From NCBI GenBank assembly GCA_020137815.1, contig CM035355.1, positions 3,100,001-3,164,000 on the forward strand: a stretch of DNA of 64,000 nt, written 5' to 3'. How positions within the stretch are numbered: the first letter of the stretch is position 1; each line of letters opens with the position of its first letter. Shown piece after piece: positions 27,775 to 64,000 of the stretch. This stretch comes from Hormiphora californensis (lineage: Eukaryota; Animalia; Ctenophora). The notes beneath the pieces were generated by a model, which was not told where the DNA came from, searched no databases, and saw nothing but the letters and a program-made list of their open reading frames with translations. Made by a program: the position numbers and the translations under genes.

Positions 27775-29221
27775 ATGGCAACAATGAACTACAGTAGCCG
27801 TGTCTTACCAACCACTACATTTGAGGAGAATTTCCAGGTAAGTGTGGAATTGTCATGAGTAAGTTTCTCAACAAGTTTTGAGGAACTGTATGGGAACTGT
27901 ATCTGGGAAGTGGTCTTGAATCGGGAAAATGTTTCGAATACTGAGCATGGTTTGCGACTGGGGTTCAGAAGGGGTCAAGGGGACTGGGTCCGAGCCCCGA
28001 GGAGGGTCTGGAGAGCTGCCTAGCTCGCACTTCATCTCTTTCTTGTACATAGTTCTCTTTTGGAAATCCATTCAAATTGTTGAACAATTTATTTTTCCAA
28101 TCCGGATTTAGGTTGATCGGTTTATAGAGCAAATGAAGACGAATTGGGTGTGGACATTTCCCCTGTCCTTTGCTTACTATACCGCTGTACAATATGGACA
28201 GAAATACATGGAGAAAAAGAGCGCTTGGAACCTCAGAACTCCTCTCATCATTTGGAGTGGACTTCTTGCTGTTTTCTCGTGGCTAGGTACGGTATAAGAC
28301 GTGTCAATAAGGATTCGAATCCTTGAAAATTCATCTTCCCCTATCTTTGTCTACCGAACTTTGCGTGACTTTTTGCAAATAATATTTTCAAACATAACCT
28401 TCTTGACCATGTCCCTCCCCCCCAGGAACGGTACGGATAACGGTATTCCTACTTCTTGCTCTACGTCAGGATGGCCTCTTTGAGACGGTCTGTGGGATTC
28501 GTGACAAGTTAGATAACCCCGCCTGGTTGTGGCTATACCTGTTTGTCCTTTCTAAACTACCAGAGCTGGGTGATACATTCTTTATCGTGGCTAGGAAATC
28601 TAAACTTCACTTCCTACACTGGTACCATCATATCACGGTTAGTTTGGGGGTCTGGTATTACTGCAATATCTCCCCTCGCTCTCTCTAGTTAATCTAACAA
28701 ACTTACTATTGTTTCTACCACACTCTCTCCCTCGCCCCCCTCTCTCTCTCTCTCTCTCTCTAGTTAACCCAACAAACTCACTATTGTTTCTCCCATTAAC
28801 TAATACCACTCTCTCTCTCCCTCGCCCCTCTCTCTCTAGTTAACATAACAAACTCTCCCTACAGGTGTTCATCTACAGCTACTACATGTGTGCCTACCCT
28901 CAGAGCGGTATGATCTGGTATGCGGGTATGAACTACGCAGTCCACGCCCTCATGTACACCTACTACACTCTCCGTGCTGCACAGGTCTGGATCCCCAGAA
29001 AGGTGGCAATGTTTGTCACAACCTGCCAGCTCAGCCAGATGGTGGTTGGGGTGACTCTACAGTTGTCCCATGCTTATCTGCTGGTGACAGGGGTTCCGTG
29101 TGACGTGAGACCGAGAGACATTGCATTTGGTATGGTGATCTATCTGAGTTACATGGCACTTTTTGCACGGTTCTTTTATGATAACTATTTGGCGTCGAAA
29201 CGAAAACCTAAAAAGAGCTGA
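27775..29221 (+). CDS. Very-long-chain fatty acid elongase (ELOVL6/3-like); approx. exons 27775-27837, 28112-28287, 28426-28637, 28865-29221
   Basis: LSKLPELGDTFFIV, LHFLHWYHH His box, MNYAVHALMYTYY, TTCQLSQM and a C-terminal KPKKS dilysine ER signal. Confidence 0.92.
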
Positions 29222-29483: not shown

Positions 29484-40591
<11,108 letters not shown>

Positions 40592-54357: not shown

Positions 54358-57300
54358 ATGTTGCTGGCAACGCTTTTGACAGTGATGCTCATAGTGGGTG
54401 GGAACTCAGCTGCAGTCAACATATTTAGGACTTCAGTTACAGAGGAACAAATGACTTTGTGTCATACTGGCTACAGGTACACTTACAGTAGGACATCGAT
54501 ATACCGGGCACCTCGATCATATACCGGGCACCTCGATCATATACCGGGCACCCCGATCATATACCGGACACCCCGATCATATACCGGACACCCCGATCAT
54601 ATACCGGACACCTCGATCATATACCGGACACCTCGATCATATACCGGGCACCCCGATCATATACCGGGCACCTCGATCATATACCGGGCACCCCGATCAT
54701 ATACCGAGCACCCCGATTTATTTGTTACTCAACAACGATTTATATACCGGGCACCTCGATCATATACCAGGCACCTCGATCATATACCGGGCACCTCGAT
54801 CATATACCGGGCACCCCGATCATATACCGGGCACCCCGATCATATACCGGGCACCACGATCATATACCGGGCGGTGGGCGGACTCTAGTGCTAACGGACT
54901 CTTTATCTAAATCCAAGGCGGACTCTATATCTAAAAACGGACTCTTTATCTACAGTTAGATTTTGAAAAAAGTTTAGATAAAGAGTCCTCTCTGTGTAGA
55001 CTTTTTAGATAAAGAGTCCACCCTGTGTAGAATTTTTAGATATAGAGTCCTCTAGTACATTTTGGCGCCAAATCCTCCAACCCGGACTCTATGTCTAAAA
55101 TCCCAACCCAACCCAAAACCTAACCCTAACACTAACCCTAACCCTAACCTCGAACCCAAATAACGGCCCTAACACTTCTAAATTAGTATAGGGGTAGAGC
55201 AAACTCTCGTTTCCGGCCTAACGGCCGAAATCTCGAGTTCGCGGCGAAAGGCGGACACTATATCTAATTTAGATTTATGTAGATATAGAGTCCACTTTGT
55301 TTAGACTTTTTAGATAAAGAGTCCGCCCTGTGTAGACTTTTTAGATAAAGAGTCCTCCTAAAGTTTAGACTTATTTGGACTCTTTATCTAAATCTAAATT
55401 TAGATATGGAGTCCTCTTTAGACTTAGAGTGTAGCACTAGAGTCCGCACACCATACCGGGCACCTCGATCATATACCGGGCACCCCGATCATATACCGGG
55501 CAAAACCCTTTCCCCGAGCATCCCGGTAGATCTTCATTCGCCTGTTTATAACCCCCGTCTCTTCATCAGTAGTATGTAAAATAGCCCCGCTGTATCAAGA
55601 TTTTCGGTGTCACCTCTTTATTCCATATATGGGCATGTGATGTCATAATCACGTGTCACTTGACGTCATATGATGTCACGTGATGTCACGTGACGTTGAC
55701 GTCACATCGTGACGTCACGTGACGTCGCAAAATTAATTTTTCATACATTCCATATATGGTCATATTTCATGCGATGTCACATGATATCACATGATGTTTC
55801 GCGATTATGAAGTCATTATGTGACATCACTTGGAAATAACGCTGGCAAGGGATCTCATTGATTTTTTGGACTTAAACGACACAAAAATTGATTGTAATCG
55901 CTGACTTCACTCTAAATTATAAACAGCATCATCTCTCTCTCTCTCCCCCCTCTCTCCCTTTCTCTCCCTCTCTCTCTAGTCTCTCTCTCTCTCTCTCTGC
56001 TTCAAACTGATGACAGGTGAGTGGCCACTAGGAGCGTGTAGTAAACATGCTGAGCTACTGTTACACACTAAAATACATATTTCAGTAGAATAGAGCTCAG
56101 AGCTTCCAGACAGTCCTGCACGTGATGTGTTTCATTCACGTGCATAACGCATTTCTTTGTAGTACTGCTACGGTGCCGCTAGCTTACTCTCATTTCTCAT
56201 TAGTAGAGTCGATAAGAACACTCACCTCCTCCGATTTCAGTAAAACTTCTCACATGCTAAAATATGATAATGGAGGTACAAATACCGCTTATTTTAGGTC
56301 CAAAAAGTTTTTGGTTCGTTAATTATCGCTAATTGAAAAACGCCAAAAATGGGCTAAAATGGCCCTTAAGGTGGATTTGAAATTTTGGAGTTGGAACTCC
56401 AGACTTCGTACAGGTGTCCGCTAGGATGCCAATATGCACCACAGGCGGGCTCAGGCCTAAATTCGTCCGAATTTTTGCGTAAGACCGGATGGCGTAAATC
56501 TTGGTCACGTGACCTCGGCTAACTTCTGAACCGCTCAAGTAAGGGATGTTCATAACCTGCTTAATCGATGCAGAATATGATGAAAATGACACGTTTTGAC
56601 ATCATTTTTCATCCCAGACGCACAGGAAAGACACAAATCGCCTTACAAAATTGACGCCATCTAGTCTCCCGCTCTTTTTTTGCAAAACTCTAACTTCTGA
56701 ACCGTTGAAGTAAGGGAGGTTCATAGCCTGCTTAATCGATGCAGAAAGAAAAATAAATGAGAGGAAATGGCCTTATTTTTCATCTCCGGCGTGCAGGAAA
56801 GGCACAAATAGCAAAAAACTGATTTTTTGCCCAAATCACGTGACCAAAATTCACGCCATCCGGCCTTACGCAAAAATTCGGACGAATTTAGGCCTGAGCC
56901 CGCCTGTGGTGCATATTGGCATCCTAGCGGACACCTGTACGAAGTCTGGAGTTCCAACTCCAAAATTTCAAATCCACCTTAAGGGCCATTTTAGCCCATT
57001 TTTGGCGTTTTTCAATTAGCGATAATTAACGAACCAAAAGTTTTTCGGACCTAAAATAAGCGGTATTTGTACCTCCATTATCATATGTTAGCATGTGAGA
57101 AGTTTCACTGAAATCGGAGGAGGTGAGTGTTCTTATCGACTCTACTACATTGGATAGCGTATTCGTGTGGTTTGCTCTCATTGGGTAGCGCAGCTGTGAC
57201 TGCGTTAGTCAAAATAACGCACTTTTCTAGTTGCACGTGATGTGTTCCATTCACGTTTATAATGCGTTTCTTTGTAGTACTGCTGCGTTGCCGCTAGCTC

Positions 57301-60300
57301 ACTCTCATTGGATATCGTATTCGGTTGGCTTACTTTCATTGGATAACGCAGTCGTCAACGCGTTAGTCAAAATAACGCGTTATATGAAGTCATTATGTGA
57401 CATCACTTGGAAATAACGCTGGCAAGGGATCTCATTGAATTTTTGGTGCTGGCAAGCGCCCAATAAGCATTTTTAGCTGTCCCAAGAAATGTATTTCTGT
57501 GCAAGAGGTAGCGGGTTCGAATCCCGACCGGGCCCGGATGGCTAGTTTAAAGTTTGCTAATAAATCGACCTCTGAAAATTATTATATTATTATGAATAAA
57601 TTTGGCACTAACAAGCGCTCCAGCAGTGTATGGATGTCCCCAGCTGGCAAGGGCCACAGTATAATGTAAAATGGCCCCGCTGTACCACCTAAAAATGGGG
57701 TACACATTTGATAATCCAGTAAAATGTCTTGAAGCTTACATTAATGGGTGTTCTTAGCTGTTCCTAGCCATTCCTAGCTATTCCTTGTTAATTATAGGAA
57801 TCATAAAAGCGTTCCAAGTGTTCCTAGTATATTCTTCGTGTGCTCTATGAGTGTTCCCAGCAGTTCCTTGATCATTCAATCTATTCCTAGTGTTCCTAGT
57901 CTGTTATTCACCGTTATCTGTTGTTTCTCGCTTGTTACAGGCATCACAGGAACACACAGGAACATCATAGGAACACGGTCGAACGGTTAGAAACACCTAG
58001 GAATAAACATGAAATCGAAAGAACACCAAGGAATGAAAGGGTTCTTGAAATAAACACCGAGGAACACCCGGGAACGCTATAAAAGGGGGATGTTTTCCAT
58101 GATCATCATTTCCAACCATGTCTCATTCAAAGTCTTTTCTGAAAGCCATGCGCTTGAATGACAAAAAGCGAAATACCTCTGATTCTGACTCTGACACTGA
58201 TTCTGACCCGAAGGAATTATCCCAATTATCTGATGAAGAGATCGATTCACCAAATGTCGAAAGTGAAACGCCATACTCGAGCCTACTGCAGTGTTTTAGT
58301 TTGAAGCAAGATCTAATTAATGCAGATTTGACTGAGATTGAGCTGTCACCAGAAGAGGAGCTTCTAATAAATGCGATAAAGGATAACGAATCATTGATCG
58401 TTATTCGTGAATTGGTGCAACAAAATTTAGAATTGGTAGAAGATATCACGGAAAAGGTGTTACCGGAAGAGAACGAAGATTGTCCAAATTGTGGGAATAA
58501 AGAGGAACATTAAACACTAATGTAGGAACAGTGACGACTATAAAAGGAACACTTGTATTTTAGTTTATTATTGTCATTTGATTTTTTTCTGTAAAAATGT
58601 ATCCATGCAATTTGTGTGATAGTGAATTTACGACTGTTTATCTTCTTCTTCAACATGAAAAATATGATCACGAAAAATGGGGACCAACTGGTACTGACTC
58701 AGTTCAATCAATCAAAGGATTTGATGACAAAACAGAAAACGTTCCAAATGAGGAATCATCAATTAATTTCAAAAAGGATAATGAAGTAAATAATGATCTT
58801 GAAGATGAGGATGATGATATCGAGGAAGATGAAATTGAGGATAAATCTGATCCATTAAAGGATATTGACTTCAAGGCGTTGTACCGAAAACGAGATCAAC
58901 AAGCTCGGAAATATGAGAGATTATACAAATCAAAGTTGAGTGAAACAAAACAGCATCTTGAGAGAATGCTCTTGTTTGAGAAACAACTAGATGAATTTAG
59001 GACTAAATTTAATGACACGCAGTTCTATGAGTTCTCGGATACAATAATCAACTCTAAAAATATCCGGGACTATTTAGAACTACGAAGATTGATGGATATG
59101 AAAAGCTATGCTTCGATTGTACGTAGTAATAGACTGGTTAAAGCAATAAAAAGCCTATTTATCGGTCTAAAGTATGGAGCTGTTCCTCTAGTTGTTCCTC
59201 AGAGAAAGCGTCTAAGTGCAAAAGGTAGAAAACTGATCAATCTGGTTGATTGCAAAAGCCTAGAAGAAATCAAAAGACTACTTTTAAAGCATTCGAAAGA
59301 TTTTTATAATATTTTTCAAGTTATCGGGAGAACGCTATCCCTTGTTGCAAGTTTAGAATATGAAAATTGAGATGTATGTATTATTCTATTTGTAGCTCTA
59401 AAAAGCGTATTTTCTGACTAAATTTGTATTTTAAGCTGTTTTTAACCGTTCCTGTATGTTCCTGGGTGTTCGTGTATGTTCCTGTGTGTTCCAGTGATGC
59501 CTGGAACAAGCGAGAAACACCAGATAACGGTGAACAACAGACTAGGAACACTAGGAATAGATTGAATGATCAAGGAACTGCTGGGAACACTCATAGAGCA
59601 TACAAAAAAAATAGACTAGGAACACTTGGAACGCTTTTAAGATTCCTATAATTAACAAGGAATAGCTAGGAATGGCTAGGAACAGCTAAAAACACCCATT
59701 AATGCAAGCTTCAAGACATTTTACTGGATTATCAAATGTGTACCCCATTTTTAGGTGGTACAGCGGGGCCATTTTACATTATACTGTGGCCCTTGCCAGC
59801 TGGGAACATCCATACACTGCTGGAGCGCTTGTTAGTGCCAAATTTATCCATAATAATATAATAATTTTCAGAGGTCGATTTATTAGCAAACTTTAAACTA
59901 GCCATCCGGGCCCGGTCGGGATTCGAACCCGCTACCTCTTGCACAGAAATACATTTCTTGGGACAGCTAAAAATGCTTATTGGGCGCTTGCCAGCACCAA
60001 AAATTCAATGAGATCCCTTGCCAGCGTTATTTCCAAGTGATGTCACATAATGACTTCATAATCACGAGACATCATGTGACATCGCATGAAATATGACCAT
60101 ATATGGAATGTATGAAAAATTAATTCTGCGACGTCACGTGACGTCACGATGTGACGTCAACGTCACGTGACATCACGTGACATCATATAACGTCAAGTGA
60201 CACGTGATTATGACATCACATGCCCATATATGGAATAAAGAGGTGACACCGAAAATCTTGATACAGCGGGGCTATTTTACATACTACTTTCATCTAATAT

Positions 60301-62457
60301 ATCTATTTTCCCAATTGTGATCTAACATTGTCTAGAGACACTACGGGACGTTGTCATGGATACGTTAACACCAAGGACTCTACGGTGTACCCTGCAATAC
60401 CAGACAACTGCACCACCATTACGTGGGAGAATGCAACAGAGAGTAACAACTGGGGTAACTGTGTCAACATGACGATTGATGGAGATTACAGGCTAGTAAA
60501 CTACTAATATGACTAAAGATTCTAAAAAGCTTTCATTAAAGCCAAAGTACGCATTCTCCTAATACTATACTCGCTGGGGTATCTTTATCTTTATGTTGGT
60601 GACACAGTCACCCTTACAACTCACGCACGTAGCGCGCCAAAACGAAGCCGGGAAGCCCGCGTAGCGGGCTGAGTTGTAAGAGAGGTGACGGCGCCACCAT
60701 TACCAAATCTTTATGTACCCTTTTATCAAATTTTTGATTACTTGTTTATTGCTTTTGCAGGTATGTGACAAGTAACAGCGTACCTGACTTCTATATGAAT
60801 CCCTATTGCCCACTGGGGCTAAACCTTGGGTACTGCTCTAAAATAGAACGAGAATGTAAGTTTGTGAATAAATGTAGCATGAAACCATGTTGAACTCTCT
60901 CCTAGTTAAAGTAACGATCTCACCCTGCTCTCTCCTATTTAAATTAACGATCTCACCCTGCTCTCTCCTAGTTAAAGTAAAGATCTCACCCTGCTCTCTC
61001 CTAATCAAAGTAACGATCTCACCCTGCTCTCTCCTATTTAAAGTAATGATCTCACCCTGCCCTCTCCCCTATTTCACAGCGGGTACGTGCATGTTCCCCA
61101 ATTTGACGTGTGGAGAAGATAACGGACCCGGTTCAGTGCCTTATGGAGACGTTTGGGTACCTGCTACCGCCCACTACAAAATACCATTGGTACGTGATCT
61201 CGTGTTTTGCAAATGTTACTATACGTGACCAGTTTTGTACTTGAGGGTCTTAGATGTCAACCAGCAGCTAAACGTTGCCCCCTGTATGGCGGCGCCATAC
61301 CCTATTTAATTCTCAATGGCAACGACAGTGCGTTCAGATGGGGTCGCGGCGCCAGACAGCAGATGCCCATTATACAAGGCAGTATAACTACAATGATAGA
61401 TGATCTGACTTGCCTAGGTTGGTAACCCAACAAGGAGTGACAGGCCTGGTGATATGTACGATGCAGAGACAGTGGGTGGAGAGAAGAACATTGCAGCCTC
61501 TGCAGGTGTTGCGATCAATGGAGTAGGAATTCAGGTTAATATGCTATGTTGATGCTGAGTTTCCTAACAAAAATAAAAACAACTAAATTTGTCCGCATCT
61601 CCGAAGGCAGAGTAGAACTACGTCGCTGTTTGTGTATGTAATAATTGTGAAAACTTTCGAGCTAATGTTTTCTTCGCTCGCATATATCACCCTGCTCTCT
61701 CTCTCTCTCCTAGTTAAAGTAACGAGCTCACCCTGCTCTCTCTCTCCTAGTTAAACTAAAGATATCACCCTTCACTCACATACCTTTTTAGGGCCCTAAC
61801 GATGCGGGGGATGTTAGTATTGACGAGGCAGGACTTCAGTTAGCATGTGGGGGACACGTTACCCCTCCTCTAGGCAACATTCCCCCTGGCCCAGACCCTG
61901 GAGCCCTCGGACCTCCCATGTACCATTTCCACAAAGCAGCCGACTGTTTGGAGCCCTTCCGTAATGCATCAATCGGCGCTGCCCACGGAGCCAAACCGCT
62001 GATCCATGGGAAACTTGTTGGTTGGTCTATGGACGGTTTCGGGGTTTATACCTACCAAGATGTGGGGGGAGCTGCCCCTATAGTGGACGAATGTGGCGGT
62101 CACTTTGGACCAATTGATACGGGTGAGGTGGTATATCACTACCACAGTAGAACGTACGTACCATACCACATGGCATGTCAGGGACCTGCCCTGGGGAACT
62201 GTGCGGCCACCCAGCGGGGTACCAGTTACTGTCATCCGGGGTGTGGGGGATATGAGGTGTGCGTTCAACCTGGGACTAATGAGCAGGATCTTAGGGAGTA
62301 TCTGGGGCAGTGGGATCCGGAGTGGATAGATCAGTACACTATTAACCCATACCAGGAACGGGAAGAGAAGGATAACAATGTTAACCCCTACCAGGAACAG
62401 AAGGAGGGCAATGTTTTTGAAAAACTGGTGAAAGAGATCAAGGAGATGTTCCTCTAA
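54358..62457 (+). CDS. Secreted YHYH-domain protein; exons 54358-54476, 60336-60491, 60761-60855, 61080-61189, 61418-61534, 61792-62457
   Basis: Signal peptide MLLATLLTVMLIVGG, then YRYVTSNSVPDF, YKIPL, GVAINGV, CGGH..YHFH, LVGWSMDGFGVY and VDECGGHFG..YHYH..PY. All exon phases are consistent. Confidence 0.85.
54498..55502. repeat. 20-bp minisatellite (catataccgggcacctcgat) interrupted by a MITE
   Basis: About 20 tandem units at 54498-54872 and 55453-55502. Confidence 0.9.
54873..55452. mobile_element. Mutator-like (MULE) MITE
   Basis: TIR ggtgggcggactctagtgcta / tagcactagagtccgcacacc; 9-bp TSD ataccgggc; many subterminal ggactctttatcta repeats in both orientations. Confidence 0.8.
56201..57147. 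mobile_element. Academ-like non-autonomous element nested in the left Polinton TIR
   Basis: ~310-bp TIRs beginning tagtagagtcgataagaac; 3-bp TSD cat; internal duplicated segments at 56519 and 56690. The superfamily call rests only on TAG termini plus the 3-bp TSD. Confidence 0.65.
58077..58088 (+). promoter_or_regulatory. TATA box upstream of mini-Polinton ORF1
   Basis: ctataaaagggg about 40 bp before the ATG at 58118. Confidence 0.55.
58118..58513 (+). CDS. Mini-Polinton ORF1: acidic 131-aa protein with terminal CxxC
   Basis: Intact intronless ORF with a Ser/Asp-rich tract, CPNC near the end and AATAAA overlapping the last codons. Confidence 0.6.
   Translation: MSHSKSFLKAMRLNDKKRNTSDSDSDTDSDPKELSQLSDEEIDSPNVESETPYSSLLQCFSLKQDLINADLTEIELSPEEELLINAIKDNESLIVIRELVQQNLELVEDITEKVLPEENEDCPNCGNKEEH
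58538..58548 (+). promoter_or_regulatory. TATA box upstream of mini-Polinton ORF2
   Basis: ctataaaagga about 58 bp before aaaaATG at 58597; same ctataaaagg core as ORF1. Confidence 0.55.
58597..59370 (+). CDS. Mini-Polinton ORF2: C2H2 zinc finger + acidic tract + coiled coil + basic C-terminal domain (257 aa)
   Basis: YPCNLCDSEFTTVYLLLQHEKYDH is a canonical C2H2 finger. The ORF is intact, intronless and AT-rich. Confidence 0.75.
   Translation: MYPCNLCDSEFTTVYLLLQHEKYDHEKWGPTGTDSVQSIKGFDDKTENVPNEESSINFKKDNEVNNDLEDEDDDIEEDEIEDKSDPLKDIDFKALYRKRDQQARKYERLYKSKLSETKQHLERMLLFEKQLDEFRTKFNDTQFYEFSDTIINSKNIRDYLELRRLMDMKSYASIVRSNRLVKAIKSLFIGLKYGAVPLVVPQRKRLSAKGRKLINLVDCKSLEEIKRLLLKHSKDFYNIFQVIGRTLSLVASLEYEN
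60893..61068. repeat. 39-bp intronic minisatellite
   Basis: ctctctcctagttaaagtaacgatctcaccctg x 4-5; related copies at 61686-61770. Confidence 0.8.
61282..61359. mobile_element. Second (inverted) copy of the 77-bp mini-MITE at 9048
   Basis: Reverse-complement similarity to 9048-9124 over its full length. Confidence 0.65.
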
Positions 62458-62545
62458 GCTAGGAGACCATCAAATGAAAATAAATAAGCGAAGGAGTTTT
62501 TAAAAGTGAAAGAAAGTTCAAAAGATATTTAAGTCTCTTTCTTAA

Positions 62546-63934
62546 GGGTACGCTAACCAAAATTTTTTTTCGAGTGCAGGGAAATCTCTCACCGTAGGGT
62601 TGTAGGCCATGCCAAGGAGACCTCAAATATGCAATTTGAGCTCTCAAGTCGAATTCATATTTTTGCTACAGCTATTTAAAAAATGTCCTGTAAATACGTT
62701 TTTGGCATCTCAAAATTTTTTTTAAAAGATAGGAGCATGAAAATTTGGGGATTTGAAGAGGACATGAAGGGGAATAACCACAAAATTTTTTTTTGTAATC
62801 CGAGCTGATTTCCGGTCCTGAGATGGATTTCTTTTTTTCCACTTTAACGCCCTATTTGGCAAAGTTCCGAAAACATGTGAAAGCTGTAAATTGGTGAAAA
62901 GTTGCGTCTAACGATTATCTAAGTGGCCATAAATTTTGGGCGTGTCCTTATTTGAAATAAGATGTACAGAGTTTTTTTTGTGAAAGCCGTCATTTCAGAA
63001 ATAGATAAATTCCCTGTATCTCAAAAACGGCTGATCGTAGAGACCTGAGACTATGCTTAAACGATTCAGAAGGTCCGATTTTGGGGGGGTCTTCTGAGAG
63101 ACATTTTGCTCCTACTTCAACCGTTTTTGCTGTAATTGCGAAAAACAAATTCTATGGAAAGGGCAAAAGCTAAACTCCAATATCCTGTAATTAGGGAATT
63201 TTGGCTAAGAAAGGACCGAAACTATGGAAAAATGTGTAACAAGCTAATTCCTTCACTATTTGGTCCATATGGGTCCCTATAATCACCAAAAACAAAATCA
63301 CAAAAAATCCACGATGGCGAAGATGGGTTTTTGTTTTTCGCAATTACAGCAAAAACGGTTGAAGTAGGAGCAAAATGTCTCTCAGAAGACCCCCCCAAAA
63401 TCGGACCTTCTGAATCGTTTAAGCATAGTCTCAGGTCTCTACGATCAGCCGTTTTTGAGATACAGGGAATTTATTTATTTCTGAAATGACGGCTTTCACA
63501 AAAAAAACTCTGTACATCTTATTTCAAATAAGGACACGCCCAAAATTTATGGCCACTTAGATAATCGTTAGACGCAACTTTTCACCAATTTACAGCTTTC
63601 ACATGTTTTCGGAACTTTGCCAAATAGGGCGTTAAAGTGGAAAAAAAGAAATCCATCTCAGGACCGGAAATCAGCTCGGATTGCAAAATTTTTTTTTGTG
63701 GTTATTCACCTTCATGTCTTCTTCAAATCCCCAAATTTTCATGCTCCTATCTTTTAAAAAAAATTTTTGAGATGCCAAAAACGTATTTACAGGACATTTT
63801 TTAAATAGCTGTAGCAAAAATATGAATTCGACTTAAGAGCTAAAATTGCATATTTGAGGTCTCCTTGGTATGGCCTACAACCCTACGGTGAGAGATTTCC
63901 CTGCACTCGAAAAAAAATTTTGGTTAGCGTACCC
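62546..63934. mobile_element. Second copy of the TTAA foldback element
   Basis: Same termini, arms and spacer as 30132-31521, flanked by ttaa. Confidence 0.9.
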
Positions 63935-64000
63935 TTAAGTCTCTTTCTAAAGTCTAGTAATCATTAAATTTGTAATTATGGCAATGCAGTAGTTGTTCAT

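Follow-up and report, generated by a model that had tools for sequence, protein, structure and literature searches.

A short Maverick-type element of the ctenophore Hormiphora californensis, probably helper dependent, with two genes under purifying selection

We analyzed 64,000 nucleotides of the ctenophore Hormiphora californensis (GenBank assembly GCA_020137815.1, contig CM035355.1, positions 3,100,001 to 3,164,000; here called the window), in which a sequence-only reading had proposed a miniature Maverick, or Polinton. Our analysis indicates that this element is probably a recent copy of a 3-kb non-autonomous Maverick family that arose by one internal deletion, is copied by a helper, and carries two genes under purifying selection. 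We refer to these genes as open reading frame 1 (ORF1) and ORF2.

The element spans positions 55568-60288 and is flanked on both sides by exact TTCATC target-site duplications; the computed chance of a 6-bp flanking match is approximately 3e-4. Both ends begin AGTAGTATG, and their mutual identity is complete over the first 60 bases shown. The AGTAGT termini and the perfect duplications at 55562-55567 and 60289-60294 are therefore as originally described. A 6-bp target duplication is a criterion of the Maverick superfamily, and 5'-AG short-repeat termini are a hallmark of Mavericks; the element has the duplication as well as arms of hundreds of base pairs with such termini. Its length is 4,721 bp, or 3,144 bp without an insert in the left arm, which matches the 3.1 kb estimated earlier. 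The long inverted arms, first put at about 850 bp, proved slightly shorter, with 832 bp on the left (without the insert) and 823 bp on the right, and 801 of 834 alignment columns (96%) are identical. Positions 55568-55869 pair with 59997-60288 at 95% identity, and 57383-57976 pair with 59466-60060 at 97%. Between the arms lies a unique core, 57977-59465, whose length we correct from 1.44 kb to 1,489 bp. As the sequence-only reading had stated, there are exactly two intact ORFs, the only ATG ORFs of at least 80 amino acids within the element. No Rfam match in the arms reached its gathering score, and those seen can be put down to palindromes. At 39437, a further AGTAGT motif was excluded as another terminus because it is a tandem repeat. 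The features of the element are as follows.

55562..55567, no strand: left target-site duplication TTCATC; empty-site joint with 6 common letters
55568..55869, plus strand: outer part of the left arm, with the AGTAGT terminus and many 10-bp repeats of the TGACGTCA type
55870..57446, no strand: insert of 1,577 bp found in the left arm only, made up of an arm segment, a MITE (miniature transposable element with inverted repeats), and a duplicate of 55806-55869
56201..57147, no strand: nested high-copy MITE with 312-bp arms, TAG...CTA ends, and a CAT 3-bp duplication
57447..57976, plus strand: inner part of the left arm, with arrays of GTTCC/GGAAC 10-bp repeats at its end
57658..57687, plus strand: inner terminus-like motif, mirrored at 59756-59785 in the right arm, with 3 mismatches in 25
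57977..58117, plus strand: core leader containing GGAAC repeats, with a TATA box that lies 40 nucleotides ahead of ORF1; the same in the related loci L002-L004
58118..58513, plus strand: ORF1, 131 amino acids
58597..59370, plus strand: ORF2, 257 amino acids, with its own TATA box 58 nucleotides upstream
59371..59465, plus strand: trailer containing the junction of ORF2 with the right arm, which L001-L003 have in common with the window copy
59466..60288, minus strand: right arm, 823 bp, unbroken
60289..60294, no strand: right target-site duplication TTCATC

The element is not an autonomous Maverick or Polinton, as it has no protein-primed polymerase B, integrase, ATPase, protease, or major or minor capsid gene and falls short of 15-25 kb. 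Searches of Pfam and PHROGs with ORF1 and ORF2 returned no polymerase, integrase, ATPase, protease, or capsid family match, in agreement with the earlier statement that the core Maverick genes are absent, and no protease match was found anywhere in the window.

Evidence of mobility came from contigs of four DNA runs, X1, X2, X5, and X7, compared with the window. In X2 and X5, position 55561 is joined to 60289, with 6 letters fitting both sides, as is anticipated for a site free of the element. The short side of the joint comprises 34 letters in X2 (study P1) and 26 letters in X5 (study P2), the latter under the caution level of the tool; the joint is absent from those listed for X1 and X7. Segments of the insert occur in run X1 with 0-1 differences; this run could be the one from which the assembly was made and is therefore not independent. 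The empty site in contigs of two studies demonstrates that the window holds a recently inserted, polymorphic copy; recent mobility, for which an empty-site check had been proposed, is thus confirmed. The ratio of contig depth in the core to that in the locus-specific bin 57211-57411 was 33-119x in X1 and X2 and 6-34x in X5. This ratio, which is no copy number by itself, suggests tens of copies.

Relatives of the element share its build. Homologs of ORF2 numbered 25 among 673 candidates (48-94% identity) and those of ORF1 18 among 66 (71-87% identity), one member of the ORF1 cluster being a Pleurobrachia bachei protein (EukProt). A metagenome scan gave four loci, L001-L004, from 114 pattern matches. 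Three of these (L001, L002, and L003) align with the window at 82-86% identity, unbroken through ORF2 into the arm, and L002 carries inverted arms on both sides; the two-ORF architecture therefore recurs in other copies, as had been predicted. Because the ORF2-to-arm junction is common to all of them, one founding deletion probably preceded the divergence of L001-L003 and the window copy. The junction region is also covered by overlapping contig pieces in X2 and X7. Other elements appear to carry these arms as well, since contig depth in X5 over the arm parts 59470-59589 and 60190-60269 is far above that of the core and loose ends in X7 join the inner arm to different interiors. A second group of ORF2 proteins (P0013-P0024; 57-61% identity) lies on contigs of 1.3-2.7 kb, with no matching ORF1 group found, and may represent a sister mini family.

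Comparison of the four close copies (window and L001-L003) indicates that ORF1 and ORF2 are under purifying selection between copies. The ratio of nonsynonymous to synonymous divergence (dN/dS) of ORF2 was 0.15-0.25 in all six pairs, with an upper bootstrap bound of at most 0.42 and a synonymous divergence (dS) of 0.25-0.47. Constraint was strongest in residues 88-257 (0.05-0.14), with 0.49-0.80 in the acidic linker. For ORF1, dN/dS was 0.32-0.45, and the interval lay below 1 in two of three pairs. Indels relative to the window were multiples of 3 in 6/6 cases within the ORFs versus 3/17 outside them, counts that are not independent because the pairs share history. Variants listed from the runs in the last 60 codons of ORF2 comprised 9 synonymous and 3 nonsynonymous changes, and no stop codon occurred among those listed in the ORF2 tail or the whole core. 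The dN/dS check thus upheld the proposal that the genes are kept by selection. These ratios are far higher than the value of about 0.001 given for core genes of fish Mavericks in PMC8097293, yet well under neutrality.

The provenance of the two genes is suggested by L004. This 2,529-bp locus contains a GGAAC-rich leader followed by a homolog of ORF1 (39% identity, E 7e-21), a homolog of ORF2 (42%, no finger), and a convergent gene for an adenain-type protease, in which His, Asp, Gln, and Cys motifs align with adenovirus protease. Adenovirus protease was the top match of this protein in both Pfam (E 0.014) and PDB (E 0.039). The dS between ORF2 and its L004 homolog is saturated; ORF2 and the L004 protein (P0108) group in a clade supported by a rough bootstrap. 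Since L004 holds both genes in order beside an adenain-type protease, they do not appear to be host cargo, and the GasderminX-like fold match of ORF2 described below, weak as it is, likewise points to a Maverick rather than a host origin. The most fitting view of ORF1 and ORF2 is that they are accessory genes of a Maverick that the internal deletion left next to the arm; they were presumably terminal in the parent element, an end that L004 does not reach. The candidate satellite of the sequence-only reading is upheld as a non-autonomous, multicopy element of one build, and as a satellite virus it is hypothetical; its genes are best regarded as accessory genes of Mavericks and not captured cargo. 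L004 starts with a palindrome bearing two opposed TATA-like boxes (1-55) and ends with 58 codons of open frame (2355-2529) on the strand that encodes the protease.

ORF1 has an acidic, Ser-rich N-terminal half, a C-terminal half predicted to be helical, and a single C-terminal CxxC. It had no family match in Pfam or PHROGs and no viral fold match at E 0.001. We rejected its identification as an Oncoid: the alignments show LxCF[SAG] rather than LxCxE and one CxxC rather than a pair. Acidic CK2-type sites are present. ORF2 consists of an N-terminal C2H2-type finger, an acidic linker, a long helix, and a helical domain that may resemble GasderminX. In Pfam it had sub-threshold C2H2 matches only (residues 2-25), PHROGs gave nothing notable for either protein, and a sequence search against solved structures matched mainly the zinc finger. 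A structure model of ORF2 (mean pLDDT, a predicted local distance difference test score, 72.7) placed GasderminX of an adintovirus first of 500 in BFVD, with a probability of 0.99, a template modeling score of 0.66 by target, 25% identity, and a weak E value of 0.094; against PDB, the fold search gave no match at E 0.001. A profile search with ORF2 returned 335 matches, many of them finger-only and unused, and the 38 spanning the C-terminal domain were aligned; they belong to a wide family of proteins with finger, linker, coiled coil, and helical domain. A protein-X-like tail carries a Gly-Gly-hydrophobic site. In ORF2 and 40 relatives, 41 proteins in all, no such site was found within the final 70 residues; the only matches to Gly-Gly-type patterns were to the KYGA motif of the family. 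TATA boxes precede both ORFs in 8/8 cases. In the gene maps of PMC8502044 this ORF2 family may appear under a name of the Adintoc type.

The domain anatomy leads us to suggest, tentatively, that ORF1 and ORF2 might be early nuclear regulators and not virion parts, and we favor this role over one in packaging. The finger of ORF2 would serve for binding to DNA or chromatin and its long helix for dimerization, and the two proteins together could switch on the helper or shield the producing copy from silencing. Selection on the genes of a helper-dependent element requires that a copy profit from its own proteins. It might persist if, within a given cell, the majority of copies are silent, so that each copy depends on its own proteins. 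Alternatively, passage through particles, with spread by way of cells that few genomes enter, would have the same effect.

The family itself likely began with a single internal deletion in a full-size Maverick, and a full-size helper likely provides the polymerase that copies it and the integrase that inserts it. By analogy with known Mavericks, every step would be supplied in trans: excision, protein-primed synthesis that starts at the AGTAGT ends and in which one arm is the template for the other, and integration that duplicates 6 bp. Duplications of six bases are indicative of a Maverick integrase that works in trans. The arms differ from each other at 1/126 positions in L002 and 6/135 in the window, versus 16/126 between copies. 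Arms that are closer within than between copies fit the templating of one arm by the other, and gene conversion or assembly collapse could contribute to the likeness.

The left arm preserves a more complex history. Its insert is bounded by a 64-bp duplication (55806-55869 = 57383-57446), and in other copies, represented by contigs of X2 and X5, the insert segment 56010/56027-56197 adjoins the inner arm. The insert thus appears to be a join between two arm variants, with the MITE arriving later; the ends of this MITE are presumably Academ-like. The flanks of the inner terminus-like motif are mirrored (inverted) between the arms with no direct duplication, and such a mirrored motif would be expected if one end gained sequence that copying then transferred to the opposite end. 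A stretch at 57500-57545, GGTTCGAATCCC, which we take to be tRNA B-box-like, is also mirrored in the right arm. ARAGORN and Rfam called no tRNA gene there, and it is possibly a remnant of a short interspersed nuclear element copied into both arms.

Selection on genes of a non-autonomous element could also have arisen in other ways. One possibility, which we consider doubtful, is a true satellite virus of animal Mavericks, in which a helper replicates, integrates, and packages the 3-kb genome into its capsids, the particles re-infect comb-jelly germ lines, and the two-gene module wakes or outcompetes the helper, with ORF2 aiding packaging competition, perhaps via the GGAAC/GTTCC arrays. The arrays are indeed dense, with 33-37 GGAAC-type sites per kb versus 1.9 per kb in the window, and L004 has them too. 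Selection that survives the deletion is what re-infection bottlenecks predict, as PMC8097293 argues for Mavericks and retroviral env, and GasderminX belongs to virion modules according to PMC8502044. Two observations speak against packaging: neither ORF2 nor its 40 relatives have the C-terminal Gly-Gly site, and a 3-kb genome is one fifth of the usual size. If this possibility were true, the family would form an undescribed class of Maverick satellites.

Alternatively, the genes might be mere passengers in the mini elements: purifying selection would act on them in an autonomous Maverick that has escaped notice, and recombination or gene conversion would renew the mini copies. By an established argument, decay is the expected fate of trans-acting genes once an element is defective, and the template-switch-like join between arm variants in the left arm shows that exchange among family members happens. 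We regard this borrowing as unlikely: the mini junction was present in 3/3 close loci, ORF2 continued into other sequence in none of the 18 loose ends listed (of 124), no cluster member among those listed lay on a contig longer than 2.9 kb, and the sole protease-linked homolog is only 42% identical, with saturated dS. Still less probable is host-tolerated defense, in which the genes would persist for the good of the host by blocking the full-size virus in a dominant-negative or defective-interfering manner. The possible resemblance of ORF2 to a virion-module protein without the processing tail suits such a role, but the insertion is polymorphic rather than fixed, diverged copies are many, and a host benefit that tens of copies share would be too diluted to keep every lineage purified. 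Finally, the element could be an assembly artifact or the relic of one full-length Maverick that suffered a deletion after insertion, for which the disordered left arm and nothing else speaks. This is ruled out by the empty site in two studies and by the recurrence of the junction, which three other loci and contigs of two organisms contain, besides the insert segments with 0-1 differences in X1. The case named earlier as refuting the original proposal (a single copy with a post-insertion deletion) fails.

Several points weigh against our preferred reading of a helper-copied family with selected genes. No helper with these ends was seen in viral and prokaryotic collections, which are poor in animal DNA: IMG/VR yielded nothing when scanned with alignments of ORF2, with the protease of L004, or with either terminal motif, nor did a scan of GTDB with the outer terminal motif. 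The dN/dS analysis includes only four close copies, found via ORF2 in mixed samples possibly spanning species; selection on ORF1 is weak in one pair (interval 0.23-1.09), and whole-core variants among those listed comprise 7 synonymous and 8 nonsynonymous changes. L001 and L003 show one arm only, and the arm likeness in L002 could be partly an assembly effect. L004 may itself be defective, as it is 2.5 kb long with no polymerase or integrase seen. The protease matches (E 0.014-0.045) are weak one by one, as is the GasderminX match on its own (E 0.094). The weakest point is the regulator role, for which the evidence is domain anatomy only.

The proposed family resembles known systems in part. 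With autonomous Mavericks/Polintons (adintoviruses) it shares the 6-bp target duplication, intronless ORFs, and long arms (584 bp in Anolis, PMC3014272), as well as homologs of both genes beside an adenain-type protease, and ORF2 may be akin to GasderminX; it differs in being 3.1 kb rather than 15-25 kb long and in having no polymerase, integrase, ATPase, protease, or capsid gene. The class of MITEs, which have no coding capacity, does not fit an element with two selected ORFs. Non-autonomous Polintons are known as Repbase "N" families. Like these and other defective Polintons, the element retains its ends, has lost the core genes, and would need a helper. The degraded vertebrate copies (PMC8097293) and Caenorhabditis elegans remnants (10.1101/2024.01.15.575659) are described as decaying, whereas here two genes are intact and selected across a dS of up to 0.47 after a common deletion. 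GasderminX of Beta adintoviruses (PMC8502044) is the top viral fold match for the C-terminal domain of ORF2, below significance, but ORF2 has in addition a C2H2 finger, an acidic linker, and a long helix and has no protein-X-like tail. In cargo-bearing nematode Mavericks (10.1101/2022.07.12.499685), extra genes likewise adjoin the left arm; those elements are nearly complete, and the genes they carry resemble host genes and contain introns, whereas the genes here are intronless, element derived, and the sole ones remaining. Satellite viruses, virophages, and defective interfering genomes are also helper dependent, and own genes under selection, as in satellite viruses, are present here as ORF1 and ORF2. 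Unlike them, the element would derive from the family of its own helper, and its packaging is hypothetical. In the literature covered, which excludes most subscription papers, no two-gene mini-Maverick or ctenophore Maverick is described.

Directly to the left of the element (54873-55532) lies a very high-copy repeat, in which segments are inverted and tandem units measure 20 bp and 31 bp; each run has 44-64 contigs with loose ends at 55494 and 21-41 at 55532. To its right, 60289-62457 contains exon-like frames and, at 61792-62457, an ORF that matches YHYH weakly; the element may lie in or near this gene. Elsewhere in the window are two 97%-identical copies (30128-31525 and 62542-63938) of a 1.4-kb noncoding element with inverted arms of about 608 bp and TTAAGGG ends, the second flanked by direct repeats of TCTCTTT-like sequence, and a fatty-acid elongase exon (28844-29221; ELO family, E 8e-28).

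Since gene products of defective elements act in trans, such elements usually lose the genes. If a Maverick depends on a helper and yet retains two selected genes, it would therefore single out genes that each genome must supply itself, and ORF1 and ORF2 are two uncharacterized proteins worth study. The homogeneity of arms within copies and the mirrored inner terminus would be sequence traces of the proposed self-synthesis of Mavericks. As a small, polymorphic, multicopy marker, the family may help to show whether animal Mavericks spread as particles; finding the mini element in particle fractions would answer that question.

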